From assembly GCA_965287045.1 (NCBI GenBank), contig OZ336885.1:49352001-49416000 (forward strand): DNA of 64,000 bases, read 5' to 3'. Each line of letters begins with the position of its first letter. Position 1 is the first letter of the stretch. The notes under the pieces are model-generated. The model was given only the letters and a program-made list of their open reading frames with translations, had not been told where the DNA came from and searched no databases. Source of the DNA: Carcharhinus amblyrhynchos (lineage: Eukaryota). The position numbers were made by a program, and so were the translations under genes. This document shows positions 564-53,904 of this stretch, one piece after another.

Positions 564-1204
564 GTGTTGACTGACTTTCAAAAAGTCTGTGGGACTAAAA
601 AAATGATGCAGCTGTTAAATTAATTGTTCACATTTATTGTCTGAAACCAAAAGTTTTTATAGGTTCTCTGAGAAGAGCCATGAAATTGTAACATGAAGAG
701 GTTACTAAAGCGTGCATTAACAAAAAATCAAATCGAGCAGTGAGCATTAGGCCCAGATGAAGAAATAGGTGAAGTTATTAGTTTGTATATCAGGACCTGA
801 AGCAATACATGAATGGAAAGGTTGTTTTCCTCCAGAGTAATAGATAAAGAATATTCTTCCCTCAAAAGTAATTAAGGCTATTTCAACTTCTTTAAGAAAG
901 TGGAATGAATAACTGATCAGGTATTGGGCCTGATAGTTATAAGTTCTTAATTTCAGATTTTTAGTACTCTTCTGATTGAATAAAATGAATAACTTGCCAT
1001 AGTTTGAAATAACTTTACATACAGAAGCATTCATCAGTCCAGGTCTGAGGAAAATAGCAACATAGGACCTGGAATTGGCCATTTACACCTGCACTACCAA
1101 CCTACCAGCACCTCCACTTTCTCAGGAGGCTAAGGAAATTTGGGATGTCTACAATACTGGTGTTGTATACAATATATATCTACGTCAACTTGACTATTCT
1201 ATAC

Positions 1205-1326
1205 AATTATTTTATTTTTAAAATGGACCAAAGTTTTACCCTGATGAGCCATGATTCATACCAAAGAAACAATACTTTTCATTGCATACTAATACATGTG
1301 ACGATAATAAATCAAATCAAATCAAA
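1205..1326 (+). mobile_element. 3' end of Rex/Babar-type LINE
   Basis: Ends ...CATGTGACGATAATAAATCAAATCAAATCAAA, the reverse complement of the tail at 3075-3130 that is attached to a Rex-like RT. Confidence 0.6.
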
Positions 1327-2014
1327 ACTACCATTCAATGAGACCATTAGCGATTGGTGACCTAATTTATGTACCCCCTCTTTGCCCTATAACCCTCGAT
1401 ACACTTGTTTAACATTTGATGAAGCATCAAGTAACATTTGTGGAAAAGAATTTCAATCTTCTACCACTGTTTGTGTTTAAAAGTGTTTCCTAATTTCAAT
1501 TCTAAAAGTCTGGCATCAATTTTTAAACCATTCTGGTCCTAGACTCCAGGGGAAATATTACTCAATCTGCTGCCCTTAATATCTTGTAAACTTCGGTCAA
1601 TCATCTATTAACCTTTCAAGTCATACAGTTTACAACCCTAGTTAGTGCAATCTCTCCTCATAATTTAACTCTTGGGGCCCTGGGTATCACTTCAGTAAAG
1701 CTTTGTTACATCTCCTTCAAGGTCAATATATCTTTTCTAAGATTGTGACTCAATGCTGGATTTTAAGGCCTTGCCTGCCCAAAGGGGTATTATGGTCCAG
1801 CCAAAGTAAATGGTAATTTAAATGGCCCCTCCACATTCATTGCTGGGAGATGTGTGGTGGCAGCGTAGTACAATCCTGGCCCACGTTTCCTCCATCCAGT
1901 GTTCTATAAGCTGAAACATGATTTCTACCCCTTTATATTCTAGTCCTTTAGAGATAAAGGGCATGATTCCATATTCCAATTCTGTTCCTCCACCTAGTGG
2001 TGCACTAAGGCTGG

Positions 2015-4957: not shown

Positions 4958-5790
4958 ATCAGCTATAGTTCAGTGGTCACAAGTTCACCTCTGAGTCAGA
5001 ATGTCATGGATTTGAACTTTCTCTGAAGGCCTGAGAACATAATCTAGACTGACCCTCCAGCACAGTACTGAGGGAGTGCTGTCAGAGGGACTGAGGGAGT
5101 GCTGTCAAAGGGCCTGAGGGAGTGCTGTCAGAGGGACTCAGGGAGTGCTGTCAAAGGGACTGAGTGCTGTCAGAGGGACTGAGGGAGTGCTGTTAGAGGG
5201 ACTGAGGGACTGAGGGAGTGCTGTCAAAGGGCCTGAGGGAGTGCTGTCAAAGGGACTGAGTGAGTGCTGTCAGAGGGACTGAGGGAATGCTGTTAGAGGG
5301 ACTGAGGGACTGGGAGAGTGCTGTCAGAGGGACTAAGGGAGTGTTGTCAAAGGGACTGAGTGAGTGCTGTCAGAGGGACTGAGGGAGTGCTGTTAGAGGG
5401 ACTGAGGGAGTGCTGTTAGAGGGACTGAGGGAGTGCTGTCAGAGGGACTGAGGGAGTGCTGTCAAAGGGCCTGAGGGAGTGCTGTCAGAGGGACTCAGGG
5501 AGTGCTGTCAAAGGGACTGAGGGAATGCTGTTAGAGGGACTGAGGGACTGGGAGAGTGCTGTCAAAGGGCCTGAGGGAGTGCTGTCAAAGGGACTGAGTG
5601 AGTGCTGTCAGAGGGACTGAGGGAATGCTGTTAGAGGGACTGAGGGACTGAGAGAGTGCTGTCAGAGGGTCTAAGGGAGTGTTGTCAGAGGTACTGAAGA
5701 AATGCTATCAGAGCTTACAGCCAAGACTCCACCTGTCAGGTAAAGGTAAAAGATCATATGGTGCTATTTTGAAGAAGAGCTGGGAAGTTC
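4958..5790 (+). mobile_element. DeuSINE/SacSINE1-like SINE hosting a minisatellite
   Basis: tRNA-like head (CTCTGAGTCAGAA), then CAGTACTGAGGGAGTGCTG, resuming after the array with GTAAAAGATC...TTTTGAAGAAGAGC. Confidence 0.65.
5067..5712 (+). repeat. Minisatellite, 23-bp unit ACTGAGGGAGTGCTGTCAGAGGG
   Basis: Directly visible tandem array with variant units. Confidence 0.95.
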
Positions 5791-7734: not shown

Positions 7735-8035
7735 GCATTTTATTAAATGCCTATTTGGAAGTTTGTGTATATCACATCAGCCACACTACCCTCATCAACC
7801 CTCTCTATCCTCATCAAAAAGCTCAATCGAATTAGTTAATCATGATTTGCTTTTAATAAATCCATGCATTTTTTAACTGGTCGGCGCAACATCGTGGGCC
7901 GAAGGGCCTGTTCTGCGCTGTAATGTTCTATGTTCTATGCTAGTTTTTAAAATTAATCTACCTTACTCTAAGGGACTATTCATTTTGACCTGGATTATTG
8001 TTTTTAAAAGCTTTCCCACCATAGAGGTTAAACTA
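7735..8035 (-). mobile_element. Old CR1 RT fragment
   Basis: Reverse strand matches the QHGF..KSCLTNLIEFF region. Confidence 0.65.
7869..7938 (+). mobile_element. Very short 3' tail insertion of young CR1 subfamily
   Basis: AACTGGTCGGCGCAACATCGTGGGCCGAAGGGCCTGTTCTGCGCTGTAATGTTCTATGTTCTATG, matching the tails at 17573 and 48900. Confidence 0.85.
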
Positions 8036-11680: not shown

Positions 11681-14600
11681 GGGGATAATGAGGTTTGGTT
11701 GCACTGTATGGATGATAGTGAGGTTTGGTTGCAACATGGGGTGGTAGCAAGGTTTGACTGCACTGTGTGGGGGATAACAAGGTTTGATTGCACTGTGTGG
11801 GGGGATAGTGAGGTTTGATTGCACTGTGTAAGGGATAACAAGGTTTGATTGCACTGTGTAAGGGATAACAAGGTTTGATTGCACTGTGTGGGGAACAGTG
11901 AAGTTTGATTGCACTGTGTGGAGGATAGGAGGTTTGATGGAACTATGTGGGGAATAGTAAGGTTTGGCTGCACTGTGTGGGGGGATAGTAAGGTTTGGTT
12001 GCACCGTGTTGGGGGGATAGCAAGATTTCATTGCACTGTGTGGGGGATAGTGAGGTTTGGTTGCGCTGTGTGGGGGATGGCAAGGTTTGATTGCACTGTG
12101 TGGGGGATAGTGAAGTTTGGTTGCACTGTGTGCGGGATGGCAAGGTTTGATTGCACAGTGTGGGGGATAGTGAGGTTTGATTGCACTGTGTGGGGGGGAT
12201 AGTGAGGTTTGATTGCACAGTGTGGGGGATAGTGAGGTTTGATTGCACTGTGTGGGGGATAGTGAGGTTTGATTGCACTGTGTGGGGGGGATAGTGAGGT
12301 TTGATTGCACAGTGTGGGGGATAGTGAGGTTGGATTGCACAGTGTGGGGGATAGTGAGGTTTGATTGCACTGTGTGGGGGATAGTGAGGTTTGATTGCAC
12401 TGTGTGGGGGGGATAGTGAGGTTTGATTGCACTGTGTGGGGATAGTGAGGTTTGATTGCACAGTGTGGGGGGGATAGTAAGGTTTGATTGCACTGTGTGG
12501 GGGATAGTAAGGTTTGATTGCACTGTGTGGGGGGGATAGTGAGGTTTGATTGCACTGTGTGGGGGATAGTAAGGTTTGATTGCACTGCGTAAGGGATAAC
12601 AAGGTTTGATTGCACAGTGTGGGGGATAGTGAGGTTTGATTGCACTGTGTGGGGGATAGTGAGGTTTGATTGCACTGCGTAAGGGATAACAAGGTTTGAT
12701 TGCACAGTGTGGGGGATAGTGAGGTTTGATTGCACTGTGTGGGGGGGATAGTGAGGTTTGATTGCACTGTGTGGGGGATAGTAAGGTTTGATTGCACTGT
12801 GTGGGGGGGATAACAAGGTTTGATTGCACTGTGTGGGGGATAGTGAGGTTTGATTGCACTGTGTGGGGGATAGTGAGGTTTGATTGCACTGTGTGGGGGA
12901 TAGTGAGGTTTGATTGCACTGTGTGGGGGATAGTGAGGTTTGATTGCACTGTGGGGGGGATAGTGAGGTTTGATTGCACTGTGTGGGGGATAGTGAGGTT
13001 TGATTGCACTGTGGGGGGGATAGTGAGGTTTGATTGCACTGTGTGGGGGATAGTAAGGTTTAATTGCACTGTGTAAGGGATAACAAGGTTTGATTGCACT
13101 GTGTGGGGGATAGTAAGGTTTGATTGCACTGTGTAAGGGATAACAAGGTTTGATTGCACTGTGTGGGGGATAGTAAGGTTTGATTGCACTGTGTAAGGGA
13201 TAACAAGGTTTGATTGCACTGTGTAAGGGATAACAAGGTTTGATTGCACTGTGTGGGGGATAGTAAGGTTTGATTGCACTGTGTAAGGGATAACAAGGTT
13301 TGATTGCACTGCGTAAGGGATAACAAGGTTTGATTGCACTGTGTGGGGAATAGTGAAGTTTGATTGCACTGTGTGGAGGATAGGAGGTTTGATGGAACTA
13401 TGTGGGGAATAGTAAGGTTTGGCTGCACTGTGTGGGGATAGTAAGATTTGGTTGCACCGTGTTGGGGGATAGCAAGATTTGATTGCACTGTGTGGGGGAT
13501 AGTGAGGTTTGATTGCACTGTGTGGGGGATAGTGAGGTTTGATTGCACTGTGTGGGGGATAGTGAGGTTTGATTGCGCTGTGTGGGGGATAGTGAGGTTT
13601 GATTGCACTGTGTGGGGGATAGTGAGGTTTGATTGCACTGTGTGGGGGATAGTGAGGTTTGATTGCACTGTGTGGGGGGGATAGTAAGGTTTGATTGCAC
13701 TGCGTAAGGGATAACAAGGTTTGATTGCACTCTGTGGGGGATAACAAGGTTTGATTGCACTGTGTGGGGGATAGTGAGGTTTGATTGCACTGTGTGGGGG
13801 GGATAACAAGGTTTGATTGCACTGTGTGGGGGATAGTAAGGTTTGATTTCACTGTGTAAGGGATAACAAGGTTTGATTGCACTGTGTAGGGGGGATAGTG
13901 AGGTTTGATTGCACTGTGTGGGGGATAGTAAGGTTTGATTGCACTGTGTAAGGGATAACAAGGTTTGATTGCACTGTGTGGGGGATAGTAAGGTTTGATT
14001 GCACTGTGTAAGGGATAACAAGGTTTGATTGCACTGTGTAAGGGATAACAAGGTTTGATTGCACTGTGTGGGGGATAGTGAAGTTTGATTGCACTGTGTG
14101 GAGGATAGGAGGTTTGATGGAACTATGTGGGGAATAGTAAGGTTTGGCTGCACTGTGTGGGGATAGTAAGGTTTGGTTGCACCGTGTTGGGGGATAGCAA
14201 GATTTGATTGCACTGTATGGGGGATAGTGAGGTTTGATTGCACTGTGTGGGGGATAGTGAGGTTTGATTGCACTGTGTGGGGGGGATAGTGAGGTTTGAT
14301 TGCACTGTGTAGGAGGGGATAGTGAGGTTTGATTGCACTGTGTGGGGGATAGTGAGGTTTGATTGCACAGTGTGGGGGATAGTGAGGTTTGATTGCACTG
14401 TGTGGGGGGGATAGTGAGGTTTGATTGCACTGAGTGGGGGATAGTGAGGTTTGATTGCACTGTGTGGGGGATAGTGAGGTTTGATTGCACAGTGTGGGGG
14501 ATAGTGAGGTTTGATTGCACAGTGTGGGGGATAGTGAGGTTTGATTGCACAGTGTGGGGGATAGTGAGGTTTGATTGCACTGTGTGGGGATAGTGAGGTT

Positions 14601-15640
14601 TGATTGCACAGTGTGGGGGATAGTGAGGTTTGATTGCACTGTGTAGGGGGGATAGTGAGGTTTGATTGCACTGTGTAGGGGGGGATAGTGAGGTTTGATT
14701 GCACTGTGTAGGGGGGGATAGTGAGGTTTGATTGCACTGTGTGGGGGATAGTGAGGTTTAATTGCACTGTGTGGGGGGGATAGTGAGTTTGATTGCACTG
14801 TGTAGGGGGGGATAGTGAGGTTTGATTGCACTGTGTAGGGGGGGATAGTGAGGTTTGATTGCACTGTGTGGGGGGGATAGTGAGGTTTGATTGCACTGTG
14901 TGGGGGATAGTGAGGTTTAATTGCACTGTGTGGGGGGGATAGTGAGTTTGATTGCACTGTGTAGGGGGGGATAGTGAGGTTTGATTGCACTGTGTAGGGG
15001 GGGATAGTGAGGTTTGATTGCACTGTGTGGGGGGGATAGTGAGGTTTGATTGCACAGTGGGGGGGATAGTGAGGTTTGATTGCACAGTGGGGGGGATAGT
15101 GAGGTTTGATTGCACTGTGTAGGGGGGGATACTGAGGTTTGATTGCACTGTGTAGGGGGGATAGTGAGGTTTGATTGCACTGTGTGGGGGATAGTGAGGT
15201 TTAATTGCACTGTGTGGGGGGGATAGTGAGGTTTGATTGCACTGAGTGGGGGATAGTAAGGTTGGATTGCACTGTGTGGGGGGGATAGTGAGGTTTGATT
15301 GCACTGTGTAGGGGATAGTGAGGTTGGATTGCACAGTGTGGGGGATAGTGAGGTTTGATTGCACTGTGTGGGGGGGATAGTGAGGTTTGATTGCACTGTG
15401 TAGGGGATAGTGAGGTTGGATTGCACAGTGTGGGGGATAGTGAGGTTTCGTTGCACCTTGGGGGATAGTGAGGTTTGGTTGCATCATGGAAAGATAGTGT
15501 GGTTTGGTTGCACTGTGGGCATAATGAAGTTTGGTTGCCCTGTGGGGAGGATAGTGAGGCTTGGTTGCACTGTGTTAGGGGGATAGTGAGGCTTGGTTGC
15601 ACTGTGTTGGGGGGATAGTGAGGTTTGGTTGCACTGTGGG
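11681..15640 (+). repeat. G-rich minisatellite, ~30-bp unit GGGGGATAGTGAGGTTTGATTGCACTGTGT, about 130 units
   Basis: Directly visible; variable G-run length and recurring variant blocks. Confidence 0.98.
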
Positions 15641-17572: not shown

Positions 17573-18479
17573 AGAACATAGAACATAGAACATAGAACAT
17601 TACAGCGCAGAACAGGCCCTTCGGCCCACGATGTTGCGCCGACCAGTTACAAAAACAATGACCCACTAGCCTATACCAATCCCTTTTCGTCCATAAACCT
17701 ATCCAGAGATCTCTTAAACGCCCCCAAACTAGGCGCATTTACAACTGCAGCAGGCAGGGCATTCCAATCTCTCACCACCCGCTGGGTAAAGAACCTACCC
17801 CTGACATCTGTCCTGTAGCTACCCCCCCTTAATTTAAAGCCATGCCCCCTCGTGCTAGCTTTCTCCATCCGAGGAAAAAGGCTATCACTATCCACCCTAT
17901 CTAAACCTCTAATCATCTTATATGTTTCAATAAGATCCCCTCTTAGCCGCCTTCTTTCCAACGAAAACAACCCTAAATCCCTCAGTCTCTCCTCATAGGA
18001 CCTCCCCACCATGCCAGGCAACATCCTAGTAAACCTCCTCTGCACCCTCTCCAAAGCCTCCACATCCTTCTTGTAATGTGGGGACCAGAACTGCACACAG
18101 TACTCCAAGTGCGGCCGCACCAGAGTAGTGTACAGTTGCAACATGACGCTGCGACTCCTAAATTCAATCCCCCTACCAATAAACGCCAAGACACCGTACG
18201 CCTTCTTAACAACCTTATCTACTTGATTCCCAACTTTCAGGGATCTATGTACACATACACCTAGATCCCTCTGTTCATCCACACTATTCAAAGTCCTCCC
18301 GTTAGCCCTATACTCAACACATCTGTTATTCCTACCAAAGTGAATTACCTCACACTTCTCCGCATTAAATTCCATCCGCCACCTCTCGGCCCAGCTCTGC
18401 AACCTATCTAAGTCTCCCTGCAGACTATGACACCCTTCCTCACAATCTACCACACCTCCGACTTTGGTGTCATCAGCAA
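17573..18479 (-). mobile_element. Young 5'-truncated CR1 (HER1-like) LINE with uninterrupted RT C-terminal frame
   Basis: ORF 17671-18483: ADDTKVGG...WRMEFNAEKCEVIHFG...[13 protein letters not shown]...FFTQRVV; GGGCCGAAGGGCC stem-loop and (TTCTATG)n tail. Confidence 0.95.
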
Positions 18480-18481
18480 CC

Positions 18482-19045
18482 AATGGGATCCACTGAGGAA
18501 GAGCATTTTGCCAACCTGGATGTGATCTTGAAGAGATTTCAAAAGGCAGGTGAAAAGAGAAAAGTACACCTTCTAAGTGAATGAGGTGGCTTATCTACAT
18601 TACGGAATGGGTGCACACGGGTTTTTACATCCCATGGAGAACATAATAAGAGCCATTAAAACAGGACTAGCCCTAGGAACACATCAGAACTCAAACCTTT
18701 CCTCGGGCTAGTCAACTACTATGGGTGGTTCCTCCCAAATCTATCAACATTGCTGGCATCTTTCATATTATTGAAGAAATGACAGAGGTGGTGCTGGAAA
18801 ACAGTACAATAAAACAAGCAGTTCAATCATCATGCTTGTTAGTATATTTTGACCCCACTAAAATTTGGTTCTCACTTGTGATGCATCCCTCCATGGGGTG
18901 GGAGCTGTGCTTTCCCATAGGATGAATGATGGATCAGCGAGACCCATTGGATGTGTATCAAGAATGCTTTCAGCTGCAAAAGAATATTCTCAAATTGAAA
19001 AGGATGGCCTCAGTTGAATTACCATTTTTATGGTATTAAAAAATT
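18482..19045 (+). repeat. 564-bp inverted duplicate of Gypsy pol segment 22955-23518
   Basis: Reverse complement matches by eye; identical 66-aa ORFs at 18725-18925(+) and 23075-23275(-). Confidence 0.95.
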
Positions 19046-19214
19046 ACAGAGGTTACAGAGATAAGGTATGGCAAAGTCATAGAAGAATAAAGAGTTCAGG
19101 ACTAAGACAGTGAAGTATCCTTAATTTGTTTTCTGGAGTGGAAGCTACAGCTTCAGACACCACTGCATTGATGCAATGGAGATTTCTGGAGAACGAAAAG
19201 CCTTGAAAATTCTT

Positions 19215-19598
19215 TTATTGAGAAAAGAGTACTCTAAGGTGTGACATATAGAGATCTTTAACATTTGAGGTAGGTTGCTGGGGTAGACGTGGAGAAGATA
19301 TTTCTAGTTTTGGGGAGTTCAAAACTAAGGCTGTTAAATATAAATTAGTTACCAATATATCCAATAAATAATTCAGGAGAAAGATCTTTCCCCAAACAGT
19401 AGTTAGAATGTGAAACTGGCTACCACAAAGAGTAGTCAAGACAAATAGAATAGATGCACTTCAGGAGAAACAAGGTAACTATATGAATGATAAAAGTATA
19501 GAAGGACATGTTGATAACATTAGATAAAGTAAGGTGAGAACCACCGTGACGTTGAATTGGTTAGTCTGTTTTTGTGCTGTAACTTCTATGTAATTCAA
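19215..19598 (+). mobile_element. Old CR1 3' fragment
   Basis: Degenerate LEKRRLRGD / FFPQTVVRM region and TGTGCTGTAACTTCTATG tail. Confidence 0.65.
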
Positions 19599-19801
19599 TG
19601 AAATCCACAGCTTAAAATCTTACAGAGTGCATTGAAATCAATTCTCCGAGCCACACATCATCCTGATTTGGAAATATATCACCGTTCCTTCATTGTCACT
19701 GAATCAAAATGCTGCAGCTCCCTCCCTGACAGCACTGTAGATCTATCTGCACCATATACACTGAATGAGTTCAAGAAGACAGCTCACCACCACGTTCTCA
19801 A

Positions 19802-20291
19802 CACCTGTGTTGATGTTTTTCTTTTTACTCCACAGGTGCTTCGGTCCGCCTTGTTGTCCAACAAGGGGCATACGCACGGTGGGTCGTGCGTGGGCTGCTC
19901 TTGGATGTTTCGAGAGTAGCCCAGTACTTTGCATTGTTTGTGTGCTCTTAAAACTGGACCAGCAGATGGGCACCATGACAGCTCAGTGACTATCACTGTT
20001 TGCTGTGCAGATACATGGATTTGGGCCAGTGTCTGTGGGAGTTCTCCCTGTGGTTGCATGGGTTTCCTCCGGGTGCTCCGGTTTCCTCCCACACTCCAAA
20101 GATGTGCTGTTAGGCTGATTGGTGTAACAAATTGTCCCTAAATTATTCTCCCCTTAATCTGGTTTCCAATGGGGGTACCATAAGCATAGACATGAGTCAA
20201 GGTTGGAGGAGGAAAAGCACATTCTTAAGATGGCGGCATGGGCTCGTGGGCCGAAGGGCCTGTTTCCCGTGCTGTGTTGTTCTTTGTTTTT
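19802..20291 (+). mobile_element. 5'-truncated copy (3' UTR only) of chimeric CR1 with embedded V-SINE body
   Basis: Homologous to 57590-58076(-); TSD GTTCTCAA (19794-19801 / 20292-20299); splits an older LINE 3' end (19645-19801 and 20300-20375). Confidence 0.85.
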
Positions 20292-21534
20292 GTTCTCAAA
20301 TAGATCAAATAGGGATGGGCAATATATACTGGCCTAGCCAGTGACACCCACATCCCATAAATGAATAAATTAATAAAAGATGCCTTTTGTTATTCCCAAG
20401 CTCCCCAGAACTGAATGTTGAGAAGTTGTGGTCTGTTGCAGGATTAGGGGGGTGAAAATTTAAAATGCAAAACCCCAGCCTCGAAGTTTGTCAGACATAT
20501 TAAGATATATTAAAGTCTAAAGTTTTGAGCAGGCTACAAGAAGGCAAAGATATTTCAGGCTTAAACACCCATTCTAGAACACCAAGGAAACACACAACTC
20601 TGACTTCTCAGGATCTCAAACCTGAAGAACTGTTCTCCTTAAAATGAGAAGAAGGTGTTGGAGCCTCTGCCAACAGCGGAGATTCCTTTACTGCAAAAAC
20701 CACATTAACCAAAATTAGGCTGGCAGGACATAAATAACTGTTATATCTTATTGCTTATCCTTGAGCCTTTTTTTTCCTTAAAATGGCGGGGCCATCAAGA
20801 ATGAATCATCTGATTCTGAAGAAATGCTGTTCTTCTGTGAATCAACCCAGTAGCAGTGTAAGAAATGGTTCAGTGCTTGAAGGACATGTCAGAGCCAAAT
20901 GATATCATAAACATGGATACGTTAATGGTGTGTCTTTAACAGCAGCAAAAGGCTTTATTTCCACGGTCCTGGTTCCATTAAGAGATTTTGTTGTACATGG
21001 TAAGCACTATGTAGAATGGCAGTATTAATAATTTATCACTGTCAGATGGTAAGTACTTGGCCAATGTCCAAATGATGACACTTCTCAAAATGTTTTACTT
21101 GTTTAGAGATAAAAGTATCCTAACCGAATTGCAGCAACTCCCCAAGGTTTTTCCTAAACTTGTAACCCCCATCACCTAAAAGGACAAGGGTAGCAGGCAC
21201 ATGGGAACACCACCATCTTCTGGTGTAAAGTCATACACTTTTCTGACTTGGAAATATATTGGCCATTCCTTCATCGGCACTAGGTCATAGTCCTGGAATT
21301 TGCTCCTGTGATAATTATAATGATTGATAACCATCCAGTTAACAAAAACAACTATTTATTGACTAACTCAAACTATGTACAGAATCCTTCAATATGCGTC
21401 TTCTCCATTCAGCTCTATGATCAATACTGATGGTAAAAGCCCTGGCTCAGCCCCAGGATTTGCATGCTCCCTCTGCACCCCTTTAAAGGGCTCGCTACTA
21501 CATACCTCTCCCTTAAAGTCCCTTATTATACAAT

Positions 21535-21661
21535 GGGCAGGATTTTCCAGCCGCGCTCACCCTGAAACCCGAAATCCCTGCCCGAGGTCAATGCGCCTTT
21601 CCATGGACCACCTCTCACCTACTACGATTCTCGTCATGGGCAGAACTGGAATGTTTTCTCC
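21535..21661. mobile_element. MITE (Harbinger-like)
   Basis: GGGCAGGATTTTCC terminus; 3-bp TSD AAT/AAT. Confidence 0.7.
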
Positions 21662-22277
21662 AATAGCTTGAAAAGTTTGGCTACTTAAACAACATGAGCT
21701 ATAATAAATAATTCTAGCAGCTCATCAGAAACCCAGTCTGCCAGGGGGCATTCGCTTTCTCTGATTATGATTATGATTCAACAGCAGAGGTTGATTCGAT
21801 TGGATTTTCTTGAGCCTGACTCTCCTCTTGTACAAGCACATTACCTTCCACTATTTCCATTGCTTCATTGTGATCAACACTTAGTTCTGCGGCAGGCTGA
21901 ATTTCCTCTTCACTCCTTTGAGCAATGACAATACTACTTTAGAATTTTGTCCTGAATTTCCACTTTGTAGTTCTCTGGGCCAGTTCTGGACACTGCAACC
22001 TGGGACCCAACTTGGTCTGTTTCCAAAATCTTTTATAAATACTGGATCATCTGATTCAAATGTTCTCTTGACTTTTGATCATGGTTCCTTTTCTGCGCAT
22101 GCTGTCTTGACTCCACCCTCCCTGCCAAACTTGGAACTATCAGGATCAACTTGGTCCTCATACCCCGACCCATCAGCAGTTCAGCAGGAATAATTCCAGT
22201 GGTCGTATGTGGTGGTCCTGTAAACAAGCAGAAATCTTGCTAACATTGCCTCAAGGGACTCCGTTGATAATTTCTTA

Positions 22278-22705
22278 AAAGTAAAGTTTATTTATCAGTC
22301 ACAAGTAAGGCATATATTAATTTTGCAATGAAGTTACTGTGAAATTCCCCAGCCCCCACAGTCTGGGGCCTGTTCAGGTCAAGGCACCTAACTAGCATGT
22401 CTTTCAGAATGTGGGAGGAAACTGGATAATATTTATTTATTTATTAGCATCACAAGTAGGCTTACATTAACATTGCAATGAAGTTACTGTGAAAATCCCC
22501 TAGTTACCACACTCCAGTGCCTGTTGGTGTACACTGAGGGAGAATTTAGCATGGCCAATGCACCCAACCAGCACGTCTTTCGGACTGTGGGAAGAAACCG
22601 GAGTATCCGGAGGAAATCCTCGCAGACATGAGAAGAATGTGCAAACCCCACACAGGCAGTGACCCAAGCCGGGAATTGAACCCAGTTATGTGGCACTGTG
22701 AGGCA
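22278..22705 (-). mobile_element. Two stacked V-SINE copies, alternative tail
   Basis: Repeated TTTATT..TCACAAGTA.GC..ACATTAAC..TGCAATGAAGTTACTGTGAAA tail and V-domain. Confidence 0.85.
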
Positions 22706-23840
22706 TCTCAAGTGCTGCCCACTTGAGATACTGGGGAGGTGGCATGCTTTCTGGTAATAGGAGGTGAATTAGGGTGTCTGCATGTACTGTGTGTGCCCCT
22801 GGCTGTGTTCAAAAGTTTAAGCTGCCAATATCAATGTCCATCATCATATTCTAGCAGGCATAATTGGGAAAATTGCTTTGTCTTCCTCATAAAGTCCTAA
22901 CAGAGACTTGTAGTCAGTTATGATGGTGAAATATCACCAGTAGATTTTTGATAAAATTTTTTAATACCATAAAAATGGTAATTCAACTGAGGCCATCCTT
23001 TTCAATTTGAGAATATTCTTTTGCAGCTGAAAGCATTCTTGATACACATCCAATGGGTCTCGCTGATCCATCATTCATCCTATGGGAAAGCACAGCTCCC
23101 ACCCCATGGAGGGATGCATCACAAGTGAGAACCAAATTTTAGTGGGGTCAAAATATACTAACAAGCATGATGATTGAACTGCTTGTTTTATTGTACTGTT
23201 TTCCAGCACCACCTCTGTCATTTCTTCAATAATATGAAAGATGCCAGCAATGTTGATAGATTTGGGAGGAACCACCCATAGTAGTTGACTAGCCCGAGGA
23301 AAGGTTTGAGTTCTGATGTGTTCCTAGGGCTAGTCCTGTTTTAATGGCTCTTATTATGTTCTCCATGGGATGTAAAAACCCGTGTGCACCCATTCCGTAA
23401 TGTAGATAAGCCACCTCATTCACTTAGAAGGTGTACTTTTCTCTTTTCACCTGCCTTTTGAAATCTCTTCAAGATCACATCCAGGTTGGCAAAATGCTCT
23501 TCCTCAGTGGATCCCATTATCAGAACATCTTGCCAGATAAATCCCGTAGCAAACTCTCCATTGTACTTTGAAAAGTGACACAAGCCGATGAGACCCTGGT
23601 GCTAGAAATGTGTACTGATATAACCTTTGTGCACATTGATGATGGTATACTGTCTTGGTGCGTTGTCTTGCTCTAATTGTTGGTAAGTTCATGACCAGCT
23701 TGGTATATGTTAAACCCTTAGCCCTTCGCATACAGGTCCTCTATTTCAGAGTTGGGTACCTAGCTAGCTTCACAGCCTGGTTTATTATCAGCTTGTAGTT
23801 GACATATATATGGATGATCTTGTCTGGTTTGATTATGGTA

Positions 23841-47144: not shown

Positions 47145-49198
47145 TTTAATTCATTATTGAAGTAGAAGTGTTGCTGGCAAGGGCCCACACTTGTTGCCCT
47201 AATTGCTCCTGAGAAGGTCATGCTGAGTCACATTCAGGCACTGCTGAAGTCCATGTGGTGAAGGCACACTCACAGACATGTTAGGGAGAAAGTTCCAGGA
47301 CTCAGGCTTAGTGGCGTTGAAGGAACAGCAATGTTGTTCCAAGTCAGTTTGTTATATGATTTGACAAGCAACTTGCAAGTGGTGAAGCCCTCTTGTGCCA
47401 ATTGCCCTTACTTCTGAATGGTAGAGGCTACAAGTTAGGAAGGTGTTGTTGAAGCAACCTTGGTAAGTTACTATGATGCATTTTGTACTTGGTACACACT
47501 TTGAGCATGTGGCCGAGGCAGTGAAGGTTTGAACTGCTGGATTATTTACCATCCAAATGCTTTTTCCTGAACGACATTGAGCTTCTTGTGCGTTATAGAA
47601 GCTGTATTCATCCATCACACTCTTGACTTGTGCTTTATAGATGGTGAACAGGCTTTGGAATATGAGGAGGTAAGTTACATTTGATAGAATTCCCAATCTC
47701 TGATATACTCTTGTAGCCAGAATATTTATATAGTTGGTTCAGTTCGATTTCTTGGCAGTCTCCAGGATTTTGATATTGGGGGAATTCAACAATGGTTATG
47801 CCGAGGCTCACACTTACTGGGGACAGTCATTGCCTGGCATTTGTGTGGCATAAATATAACATGACACTTGTCAGTCTAGATCTGAATGTTATTCTGTTGG
47901 ATGGAGGCATGGCCCACTCCACTATCTGAAAGTTGAGAATTGGATTCTGTGCAATCATCAATGAACGACCCCACTTCTAACCTTATGATAGAAGGAAGGC
48001 CAACGATAAAGTAGCTGAAGAAGGTTGGGCTAGGGCACTTCCCTAAGGAACTCCTGCAGAGATGTCCTGGGCCTGAGATGATTGGTCTCCCCAACAACCA
48101 CAACCATCTTCCTCTGTGGTAGGTATGACTTCAACCAGTGGAGAGCTCTCTCTGGTTCCTATTGTTTCAATTGTACTAGGGCTCCTTGATTCTACACTCA
48201 GTAAATCTTGATTCCAACTCTGGAGTTCAACTGTGACCATTTTTGGAACAACACTGCAATGAGATCTAGATCCAAGTTATCAGGTGAAACCAGAAATTGC
48301 ACATTAGTTAATAGGTTATTAGTAAGTAATTGCTGTTTGATAGCACTGCTGGCAAAACCTTCCATCTCTTTACTGATGATTGTGAGCTGACTGGTAGGGC
48401 GGTGGTTGCTGGTTTAGATTTGTTCTGCTTTTTGTGGACAGGGCATGGGCAGTTTTCCCCACCGCCTGGTAGATGCCAGTGTTGCAGCTGAACTGGAACA
48501 GCTTGGCTAGAGGCAAAGATAGTCCTGCAGCACTAGTCTTTAATGATACAATCAGGATTTTTGTGGGTCTTACATTCTTGTTGTATCTCATGCCTTCAGC
48601 CATCGTTTGATGCCATATGGAGTGAATCAAATTGATTGGTTTCTATATTGATGGGTACCTCAGGAGGAGGCCGAGATGTGTCATTCATGCAACTTTTTTG
48701 GCTAAAGTTTGTAGCTAATATTCCAACTTTTTCTTTTGTATTAATCTGCTAGCCTCTCCTATCATTGATTATGCAAATATTCATGGAGCCTACTCCTCCA
48801 ATAATGCGCCTACTTTGGGGGCGTTTAAGAGATCTGTGGATAGGTTTATGGATGAAAAGGGATTGGTTTAGATTAGTGGGTCAGTGTTTTTTTAAAAAAA
48901 ACTGGTCGGCGCAACATCGTGGGCCGAAGGGCCTGTTCTGCGCTGTAATGTTCTATGTTCTATGTTCTATTACCATTCATGGCTGGATGTGGAAGAACTG
49001 CAAAGCTTTGATCTGATCCATTGGTGGTAGATTCTATTTGGAACATGCTTCTTCCACTTTTTAGCATGCATATGGCCTGTGCAGTAGATTATCTAGTCTA
49101 ATACCTCATTTCCAGGCGTGATGGTGCAGCTCCTGGCAAGTTCTCCTGAAATTGTATTGAACTAGAGTTGGCCTTTGAAGCTTATTAGTAATGATGGA
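47145..49198 (-). mobile_element. Ancient LINE (CR1/L2 group) RT and 3' end
   Basis: ISAGVP, SFIDDCT, TIYKAQVKSVM, LAKLFQFSCNTGIY motifs; tail shared with 19645-20375, 21130-26110, 42820-43060 and 51665-52760. Confidence 0.7.
48800..48970 (+). mobile_element. Young CR1 subfamily 3' tail insertion
   Basis: Near-identical to the 3' end of 17573-18479. Confidence 0.9.
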
Positions 49199-50094
49199 TA
49201 TTTTATGTAAATAGCCTACATCCTAAGTTTTACATTTGATTTTGGCATGAGTGAGCACAAGGTGTTTCACTTCAGGTATGATTTAAGTGACCCACTAGGG
49301 AGCTTTTCTCAAACAAAGTTTATTTAAGAGCACAATGAAGAAGATATAATTAAAGAATTAGCATAACTTTTATCAATTACAAGATAAACCTGAACAGCTA
49401 GCTATCTATGCTGTTCCAAGTCAAACACCATCCCACAGACATATGCCCTTCTCTATATTTGGCACCAAAAGCAAGTATGCTCATCTGATGCTGGATTTTC
49501 AACTTTTTAATACCTGCTGTGAATTGGTTCTTTGAACGTTGGATTAAATCTCTGAGGCTTCCCAGTCCTGGAACTTTCAAAATGCCTCTAGAATGGGAGA
49601 AAGAGACAGAGACAAAGACACTGCCGCCTTCCACCAGCTTCTAGCAGCAACTGAGAAACAAAACTAATTGGAATGCTCTAAACAAAAGTTGTCCCCAGGC
49701 TTATCACCTGACCTACCAATCATCCACAAATCAAGCTCCACTTAGCAATTCCCAAAAGACCTTTAAGCCACAGAGCATTGCATTAGTTCACTTAAAATCA
49801 GCATGATGTCCATCATATTGCTTCTGTAACAATTAGAGGACACTGGTTACATGGCACCATGGACCTGGTAGGACCTGCTTGAAAAACTGCAGAGAAACAT
49901 GACTAATGGATGTCTATTTCTGGCCGGGGTCCAACATCCACTGTTGGGACCCAGGCCAGAAACTCCAAGGTATTTTATGTAAATAGCCTACATCCTAAGT
50001 TTTACATTTGATTTTGGCATGGGTGAGAATAAGATGTTTCACTTCAGGTATGATTTAAGTGACCCACTAGGGAGCTTTTATCAAACAAAGTTTA
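49199..50094 (-). mobile_element. LTR-like element, circularly permuted with 124-bp terminal redundancy
   Basis: Direct repeats 49199-49322 / 49971-50094; internal CA-TCCAC-TG junction with ~20-bp inverted termini; AATAAA on minus strand at ~49320. Confidence 0.65.
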
Positions 50095-51000: not shown

Positions 51001-51945
51001 ATTTCCGCTTGGTCAAGTTATTAGAGGCAATTAGTGGGGGGCATATTTCAGCAGTGGTAAGGACCTTCAGGAGAGAAAGGAAACAATTATTTTTAAAGAA
51101 ATGCATTTATTTAGAATTATTCAGCCAACATGACTTGTGTGAATCCATGATCCCACAGTGACTTCATAGGTGTAACATCACATTCCCAATTTCTTGCCTC
51201 ACATGTTCTGTGTAAACAGCTTCCTTTTTGGAGTCCTGGATCTTAGAACTATCTGCCTTGGCTGAAAGGCAGAGAGTGAGCCCAGGTGAAGATCACTAAC
51301 TATATTGCTGTGCAGCTAACCCAGGGGATCGATCACTTATGATTGACATCTCCACTTGACAGCAGGGCTTAAATAAGGAAGTCACTGTGTAAAACATTTC
51401 ACATGGTGATGAGTACCAGCCCCCTCTCAGGATCACAGTGATCTCTACTGCATGTTGGGATGGTATGCAGGTAAGATTGGTCATGCCCGTCAGCAGAAAG
51501 CAAATCCATTTTAGTAAATGTTTTAATGTATCGGACAGGTAGACACATCTAATAAAGCACAATGATGACCGAAAGCACTGGTCTAAATTTCTGAAGCATC
51601 CAGTTAAAGAAAAATAATATCATAATATCTTTAAAAGTCATCGAATGGATCCACCTGGATTTTTTTCTTTATTCATTTACACGATGTGGGTGTAACTGGC
51701 TAGGCCAAAATTTATTGTCCTTCCAGAAGGTGGTGGTGAGCTGCCTTCTCGAACTGCTCCAGTCCCTGAGGAGTAGGTATATACAGAGCGCTGTTAGAGA
51801 GGAAGTTGCCTGATTTTGACCCAGCAACCTTAAAGGAATGGTGATATATTTCCAAGATGTGGGTATGCCGGCGTTGGACTGGCGTAAACACAGTGAAAAG
51901 TCTGACAACACCAGGTTTTAGTCCAACCTATTTATTTGATAATAT

Positions 51946-51984
51946 ACTCACAAGCTTTCGGGTTAGTCCCTTCGTCAGGTGAAT
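51946..51984 (-). ncRNA. Minimal type I hammerhead ribozyme motif (mirror copy)
   Basis: Exact reverse complement of 52431-52469. Confidence 0.75.
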
Positions 51985-52430
51985 GGAGAGTTCTGGCCTC
52001 AGACAGAGCATATAAAGCACAGACAGTTTAGAGATTACTGATTAGAATGCGAATCCTTACACCTAACCTGCTGTTCAAGACCTGAAGTGGCTGATAATGT
52101 GAGTGGAAGGAGCACTGATCACAGTTTAAAGAGATGTGTATTGTCTCCAGACAGTACAGTAAGTGAGGTTTTGCAAACCCAGGCAAGTCACGGGGGTTAC
52201 AGATAGTGTGACATGTAACCCCCGTGACTTGCCTGAGTTTGCAAAACCTCACTTACTGTACTGTCTGGAGACAATACACATCTCTTTAAACTGTGATCAG
52301 TGCTCCTTCCACTCACATTATCAGCCACTTCAGGTCTTGAACAGCAGGTTAGGTGTAAGGATTCGCATTCTAATCAGTAATCTCTAAACTGTCTGTGCTT
52401 TATATGCTCTGTCTGAGGCCAGAACTCTCC

Positions 52431-52469
52431 ATTCACCTGACGAAGGGACTAACCCGAAAGCTTGTGAGT
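52431..52469 (+). ncRNA. Minimal type I hammerhead ribozyme motif (PLE-associated)
   Basis: ATTCAC-CTGACGA-A-GGGACTAACCC-GAAA-GCTT-GTGAGT: core CUGANGA/GAAA, stem I, stem II and palindromic AAGCTT stem III. Confidence 0.75.
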
Positions 52470-53904
52470 ATATTATCAAATAAATAGGTTGGACTAAAAC
52501 CTGGTGTTGTCAGACTTTTCACGATATATTTCCAAGTCAGGATGGGATGTGGCTTGAGCAAAAACTTGATGGCACACACAGCTTTCATTGCATTGGCGGT
52601 GAAGGGATTGAATGTTTGAAGTAATGGATAGGGTGTCAATTAGGCAAGCTGTTTTTTTCTTGGATGGTTCAAGCTTCTTGAGTGTTGTTGGAGCTGTACT
52701 CATCCAGGAAAGTGGAGAGTATTTCATCACACTCCTGACATGTGCCTTTTAGATGGTCGCTATCCTCTACCTTGAATATAACCCAGAATACAGCCATAAC
52801 CTTACACAGTGTTCAAAACAATTTGCAACTCCTCAAACACTTAAGCAGTCCATGCCATATGCAGCAAGATCTGGACAACATTCAGGCTTGGATTGACAAC
52901 CTGACAAATACCATTTGTGATGTAGAGATGCCGGCAACCTGACAAACACCATTTGTGCCAGAGAAGTGCCAGATAATGGCCATCTCCAACAAATGAGAAT
53001 TTAACCATCACCCCTTGACAGAGAATGACATTACCATTATTGATTCCCTCACTATCAACATCCTGGTGGTTGACCAGAAAATAATTGGTTGTGATTGTAA
53101 TAGGATCAAAGAGCTTGCTGACAATTGCTTTTGAAGTTTGCACACTTAGAATATTTACTTGGGTAAGGCACTAGAGATATCTTCAGAGTGTCAGTCTTTG
53201 ATCACATCTGAGTTGGAAAGTCTTGGGTTTGTCGTTCTACTCTAGAAACTTGAGCACCTAATGGCATCTTAAATGGGAACAGAGGCCACCTAAATCAAAT
53301 CGCACTCAGGCACTGCACTGGTTGAGATAGAGTGATAACTATTTTTGTCTTTCTTCACACTGAAAACTGAAGCAGCAAGGAAACATTATACTTTAGGTGC
53401 ATTAAATGTGAGCAATGGGACCATGGCTTTCCAGTGCTGATGTGGAGTGAGCCCTTGGTGGATGAAGAGACAAAGCAGGAGTGATCTGAGTGGAACATGT
53501 GGCAAGTGTAGAATGTTTGGGAGAAACAGGTGACTTTGTTCCCAAAGCTCTCCACCACTTGAACCATCTCTGGCTGTGTTGTCCATAACTGAGAGAATGT
53601 AATTATAATGAATGGTCAAGAGCTCAACAACTCAAGTATCACATGACATGGCAAATGCAATAACAGAAATTTCGTGAGATGGTTCATGACCTTTACTTCT
53701 TTTGTAATTCCTATGTTTATGATATGCACAGTACTGCCATTTGATTCTTCTGCAGAGAAGAGAACTTCTCTCATAGTGCTTTCAAAACTGCTTTTCATTA
53801 CAATGAAATTACAATGTAATCACAACGATCTCTTTTGTAATATACAAAGGGAAATTGAAAACACATATTCTGGCCATTTATTAGTTATTTTTATGTCTAT
53901 CTGG

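Follow-up and report, generated by a model that had tools for sequence, protein, structure and literature searches.

A young CR1-type LINE and a 564-nt inverted copy of DNA from 3.9 kb downstream lie joined in the genome of the shark Carcharhinus amblyrhynchos, and both are missing from the corresponding site in two related organisms. On balance, we favor the view that the two parts entered as one event and that host break repair generated the copy on a DNA template, most probably with the resected far end of the break folding back on its own strand. That a single event on a DNA template took place, whichever end did the copying (foldback and cDNA-side copying together), is probable. Coordinates refer to the window, the whole 64,000-nt stretch of DNA analyzed.

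Structure of the insertion and its empty site

The features of the insertion are as follows, with their basis in parentheses.

17573–17576, plus strand: AGAA occurring in target site and LINE tail alike, likely the TPRT priming microhomology, with a target duplication of 0–1 nt (empty-site contigs, letters)
17577–18479, minus strand: young 5'-truncated CR1-type LINE with four AGAACAT units (17573–17600), a 3' UTR, a stop codon at 17671–17673, and an open ORF2 C-terminus (ORFs, Pfam, protein matches)
18480–18481, plus strand: extra CC at the LINE 5' joint, without microhomology (sibling comparison; junction unique in the assembly)
18482–19045, minus strand: exact inverted copy of 22955–23518, 564 nt (pairwise identity; about twofold contig depth in carriers)
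19046–19049, plus strand: extra ACAG, forming with the preceding TT and following AG a repeat of flank TTACAGAG, a templated end-joining scar (junction contig 19016–19678 in runs X1, X2, and X4)
19050–22954, no strand: right target flank and 3.9-kb spacer, intact, carrying the template TTACAGAG at 19053–19060 (empty-site contigs)
22955–23518, minus strand: source of the copy, lying between RT and RNase H in the decayed pol of an old LTR retrotransposon, presumably Gypsy-type (frames, Pfam; one copy in relatives, single depth in X5 and X7)
23050–23057, plus strand: CCAATGGG within the source arm, identical to 18480–18487, a weak candidate for a snap-back template of CC (sequence match)

The LINE shows four 7-nt tail repeats, 5' truncation at 18479, and a target duplication of 0–1 nt, and it retains an open ORF2 C-terminus of 268 aa (17674–18477, minus strand). 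Its nearest copies within 1.86 Mb showed 97.7–98.8% identity. Sibling copies carry an A beyond 18479, so that 18479 is the truncation point and the CC at 18480–18481 is extra, as had been predicted for this minus-strand element; the LINE-CC-copy junction occurs once in the assembly. The RVT_1 match was weak in the truncated piece (E 0.02) and reached E 2e-32 in a longer sibling that is 96% identical. The best named protein matches were to shark and ray sequences (55–72%) and to bird and turtle RTs (about 40–58%), and we take the latter to be CR1. These protein matches would fit assignment to a CR1-type LINE, the clade label being putative.

Pairwise alignment of 18482–19045 with 22955–23518 revealed exact reverse complements over 564 nt (0/564 mismatches) with 3909 nt between them, in agreement with the predicted copy of DNA about 4 kb downstream; the 0/564 differences correspond to an arm divergence below 0.53% at 95%. 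The reading frame of the source arm is broken in all six frames. PF17919 (E 1e-11) and PF17917 matched it at 22986–23138, with one of the five stop-free source pieces giving a match; the domain is an LTR-type RNase H, and among LTR groups the source is presumably Gypsy-type. A search of the 2.9-Gb genome, in which the window sits on a 70-Mb contig, returned 43 matches to the source, and all except the two local arms were 64–79% alike (40 of 137 candidates scored). Given a decayed source and such distant relatives, the arm identity cannot stem from separate insertions. Independent Gypsy insertions, which the original prediction had excluded on the grounds of a stop-ridden pol, are accordingly ruled out as its origin, no genomic relative of the source exceeding 79% (40/137 candidates scored).

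An allele lacking both the LINE and the copy is present in other species: in two relatives, with contigs of 824 nt (X5) and 827 nt (X6), position 17575 abuts 19050, and the flank contig of a third, X7, likewise begins at 19050. Compared with X5 and X6, no target bases were lost at insertion. The empty site reads GGAGA/AGG (17575 to 19050), leaving only ACAG (19046–19049) as extra sequence at the distal joint. The small duplication predicted there stands; the flank join proposed as GGAG/GAGG is corrected by these contigs. Flank divergence was 16/1187 (1.3%) to X5 and 23/1235 (1.9%) to X6, which together with the empty sites makes the insertion younger than both splits.

The absence of both parts from the two relatives' empty sites, with no target loss, makes one event by far the best reading, as originally claimed; by chance, a local copy would be expected to land no more than 5 nt from a young 5' end 0.02 times in a 1.864-Mb sample. 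Searches with the flanks gave little sign of the single old repeat of which they had been proposed to be halves (the left flank had one weak match and the right flank no match), but the single-event point holds because the empty allele shows it directly.

Local copies elsewhere in the genome

The survey comprised 1.8 Mb fetched beside the window and from three other contigs (1.864 Mb including the window), with BLAST run in the fetched stretches. Three LINE families and one SINE together had 105 young copies (at least 90% identity and with a 3' end), of which 98, either truncated relative to a reference copy or SINEs, were retained and 7 dropped. An exact local match of at least 25 nt just past the 5' end was found in 3/98, two of them in one cluster of neighboring LINE copies. 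With these two set aside, only one young truncated LINE or SINE copy (1/98) in the 1.864-Mb sample carries a local 5' insert, that at 17573–19050. The 3'-side control gave 1/98, in the same LINE cluster as the two discounted 5' matches.

Local duplications in DNA outside young repeats (at least 93% identity, at least 40 nt, within 30 kb) were counted after removal of tandem arrays and of pairs with close distant relatives. There were 20 in 1.864 Mb, 11 direct and 9 inverted, with a median length of 118 nt and a median gap of 782 nt; one 42-nt pair among them may be two SINE pieces. The 564-nt pair is the longest, the farthest apart, and the sole one at a young 5' end. The other 19 (11 direct, 8 inverted) adjoin no young LINE end, and several interrupt older repeats. 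These copies without a young LINE end favor general break repair on DNA over a jump of reverse transcriptase onto RNA, and since they are direct about as often as inverted, foldback is not the sole route by which they arise.

Local templated copies were unevenly distributed, with 19 in 1.264 Mb of contig C16 (48.75–50.02 Mb) versus 1 in 0.6 Mb of contigs C1, C5, and C10 (binomial P 0.004), and this unevenness may track the break or recombination rate. Within the window, 49199–49322 and 49971–50094 form a direct local copy (124 nt, 96%, 648 nt apart) with no adjoining young repeat. At window 1100–1330, an older LINE fragment lies between a pair of ACTACCA motifs, and its inner ~430 nt have given way to 112 nt copied in inverted orientation, at 99% identity, from a source 1.3 kb upstream (L050:9709-9820), likely by a later repair event.

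On a more speculative reading, less likely than not, templated break repair has left a dense fossil record in the shark genome (~10 local copies per Mb, concentrated in certain regions), and about 1% of its young CR1 insertions may be accompanied by foldback copies that have kilobase loops and exceed in size those described for L1. If so, a genome-wide count of side, orientation, and scars would show which end does the copying in the germline.

Copying mechanism and alternatives

The insertion comprises 904 nt of LINE with a 4-nt match between tail and target. The LINE would have nicked the plus strand after AGAA, reverse transcription would have proceeded to 18479 from a cDNA primed at 17576 and forming the plus strand, and the second strand would have been cut nearly flush. 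The far end would then have slipped by 9 nt, adding the short TTACAG repeat, undergone resection of at least 4.5 kb, and paired by 2 nt (AA) with its own strand at 22955, after which 564 nt would have been copied. Joining of the new end to the cDNA end without homology would have left CC, and the gap would have been refilled. The template of the insert would be the source minus strand if read from the far end and the plus strand if copying ran from the cDNA end. A foldback of the far end requires nothing extra, since resection there lays bare the minus strand.

Such a course has been modeled for human L1, with resection, self-annealing by about 2 nt, synthesis, and homology-free joining to the cDNA (bioRxiv 10.1101/2024.12.14.628481; earlier version PMC11702581). 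The shark copy is inverted and on the 5'-joint side of the same target, as reciprocal-end foldback predicts, and its joints show 2 nt of homology (AA) at the fold, after the short repeat, and none, plus CC, at the cDNA joint (18479/18482). The L1 reciprocal-end inverted duplications described in the available text of the preprint likewise have the copy on the 5'-joint side at the cDNA end, a 2-nt fold homology, and none at the cDNA joint. We favor foldback because of this match in side and orientation and in both homologies, with the side and orientation evidence coming from one case. The L1 duplications differ in arising from small hairpins, whereas the shark case is an inherited CR1-type LINE with a 3.9-kb loop and a retained spacer; large L1 hairpins gave inversions instead of duplications in the accessible parts of that preprint and of PMC10191854. 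In the latter, a somatic survey, foldback inverted duplications of 52–220 bp were recorded four times (n = 3 plus 1; 0.3% and 0.1%). This 'process C' resembles the shark case as a rare, short foldback inversion at the 5' joint (1/98 in the shark), but the shark event is germline, non-L1, and 564 nt long. Its size, beyond the published 52–220 nt with small hairpins, counts against the foldback reading. Folding revealed no stable hairpin at the far end (z 0.2).

The short sequences at the joints are compatible with either direction. At the distal joint, TTACAGAG occurs twice (19044–19051 and 19053–19060), an 8-nt flank repeat expected by chance 0.0005 times within 20 nt. Short repeats of this kind are scars of synthesis-dependent end joining (SD-MMEJ), and the available text of PMC5728401 allows a trans interpretation of loop-out events as well. 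Because the scar can form by loop-out or in trans, it gives no direction of copying; judged by sequence, the junctions would fit copying from either end, and the distal repeat would fit a final join on the cDNA side equally well. Read in trans, the distal repeat favors the direction of the original prediction. Snap-back templating of CC by CCAATGGG would weakly favor foldback; chance would produce the match 0.01 times over 564 nt of a single strand, and more often if several ends and strands are allowed. Among templates for CC sought locally, the best matches were weak, at 8–9 nt.

In a rather unlikely alternative, the event would also be single and DNA-templated, with the cDNA end gaining CC, extending on the source plus strand (a resection-released piece or an invaded duplex), and joining the far end by repeated 2-nt pairing. 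The absence of homology and the two extra bases at the cDNA joint accord with this course, and such a joint suits an end-to-end jump by a non-LTR reverse transcriptase. The string TT-ACAG-AG would be the simplest trans templated insertion in the terms of PMC5728401, and inserts from cleaved single-stranded DNA flaps have been inferred for L1 (PMC11702581). However, a free plus-strand piece or homology-free strand invasion is required, a joint with zero homology was taken as end joining rather than template switching in the L1 study (bioRxiv 10.1101/2024.12.14.628481, available text), and CCAATGGG within the arm weakly favors a free 3' end on the other strand. Of the two branches of the original prediction, the copying of local DNA through repair is supported as the likelier. 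The prediction omitted the published alternative in which the far end, instead of the cDNA, does the copying by folding back.

The RNA branch of the original prediction, in which reverse transcriptase would have left the LINE RNA for a nascent transcript of the local plus strand, is improbable. One switch of somatic L1 onto local pre-mRNA is reported in the accessible text of PMC10191854, and CDH22 lies upstream on the plus strand, so that read-through RNA would have the right strand. However, no gene was found over the insertion site among 137 exon-like candidates within ~150 kb searched with Pfam, a screen that misses short or non-coding exons: none of the 137 (0/137) puts a gene across the site, and Pfam matched three of them, one as an exon of a cadherin, one as part of an integrase, and one weakly as a DUF. 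The cadherin exon belongs to CDH22, whose last coding exon, with the stop, ends 97 kb ahead of the site. Similar inserts, moreover, arise in the same genome without any LINE end.

We give a similarly small chance to a two-step history, in which the LINE came first and a later break removed its 5' part, repair then adding the copy. Later replacement does occur, as the LINE at window 1100–1330 with its inner part replaced by a local copy shows, but here the deletion must end exactly at the old target joint without flank loss, and both steps must postdate a split at ~1.3% divergence.

Read data bear on the integrity of the assembly. The carrier runs X1 and X2 derive from sample S1, which may be the assembled sample, and X4 from sample S2, which has its own variants. 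An unbroken contig from 19016 crosses the distal joint in all three, with 30 letters on the copy side, one letter short of our bridging rule. Arm contigs in carriers had ~1.6–1.9 times the depth of the flanks (12.7 vs 6.8–8.2, 16.4 vs 9.6, and 27.6 vs 15.6–17.5), and arm depth was single in relatives (X7: 9.2 vs 8.4). The left flank continues into the LINE tail, and the carrier arm contig continues into the outer flank of the source. None of the contigs listed for X1, X2, and X4 contained the junction between LINE and copy, and bin depth showed no extra cover there; the assembler could have dropped a short low-depth link beside a very deep repeat. An assembly artefact, which the 100% arm identity, this missing junction, and the possible origin of X1–X3 from the assembled sample would suit, is very improbable in view of three runs, including one of the separate and variant-bearing sample S2, that give both the distal-junction contig and double depth, the left flank entering the LINE tail in the same carrier runs, and the single depth and empty site of relatives.

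In the collapsed arm contig of S2 (X4), G occurs at window 18554 and 18629, in one or both arms, where the assembly and relatives have A. A-to-I editing was considered for these two A>G differences and rejected; the run is presumably DNA, and they were taken as variants.

Relation to known systems and sequence context

The shark insertion, with foldback as the preferred reading, is an example of a known LINE by-product, new in element and lineage. Only its size is unusual, with 564 nt and a 3.9-kb loop placing it toward the upper limit of what has been reported. For the zebrafish LINEs ZfL2-1 and ZfL2-2, extra 5' nucleotides are templated from flanking DNA by annealing and DNA polymerase, and the shark ACAG is of the same kind, whereas no inserts of hundreds of bases from kilobases away are described in the available portions of these reports (PMC4245944; PMC4760211). 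SD-MMEJ (PMC5728401) and yeast foldback inversions (PMC11724301) share the short repeat scar and the inverted local copy, but, in the text available, involve no retrotransposon and are mostly 5–34 bp in yeast. A literature search, with most subscription journals and supplements outside its scope, returned no report of a LINE-fused inverted local copy for CR1 or sharks. Complex 5' joins known from human L1 in tumors and cell lines also arise with CR1-type LINEs in a cartilaginous fish, where they have been inherited and would involve at least 4 kb of resection or looping.

Judged from its sequence, the product appears to be a passive scar. The single insertion looks neutral and is usable as a lineage marker; its value comes from belonging to a large set of events that can be counted. 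Young repeats in the region often form nearly identical inverted pairs less than 20 kb apart (for example, 664 nt at 99.8%), so that the 564-nt pair is not an unusual substrate for the inversion or dsRNA formation proposed for it.

The plus-strand gene CDH22 (L042:5862-6164 and upstream) is more than 470 kb long and ends ~80 kb before the window. The SLC12 and TNF receptor families, whose members we presumed from synteny to be neighbors, gave no match when searched near the site. The LINE family of the insertion has two more young copies in the window, both very short, at 7869–7939 and 48803–48970. A young insert at window 51857–52522 consists of a perfect 309-nt inverted repeat with a 12-nt gap, bounded by a duplication of 14 nt (51843 and 52523). 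A YIG-like motif in an ORF of related copies suggests a Penelope-like element. Two tandem arrays are also present, one of ~4 kb (window 11681–15640) with a 30-nt unit and a strong G skew, and one of ~0.7 kb (window 5062–5736) with a 23-nt unit.
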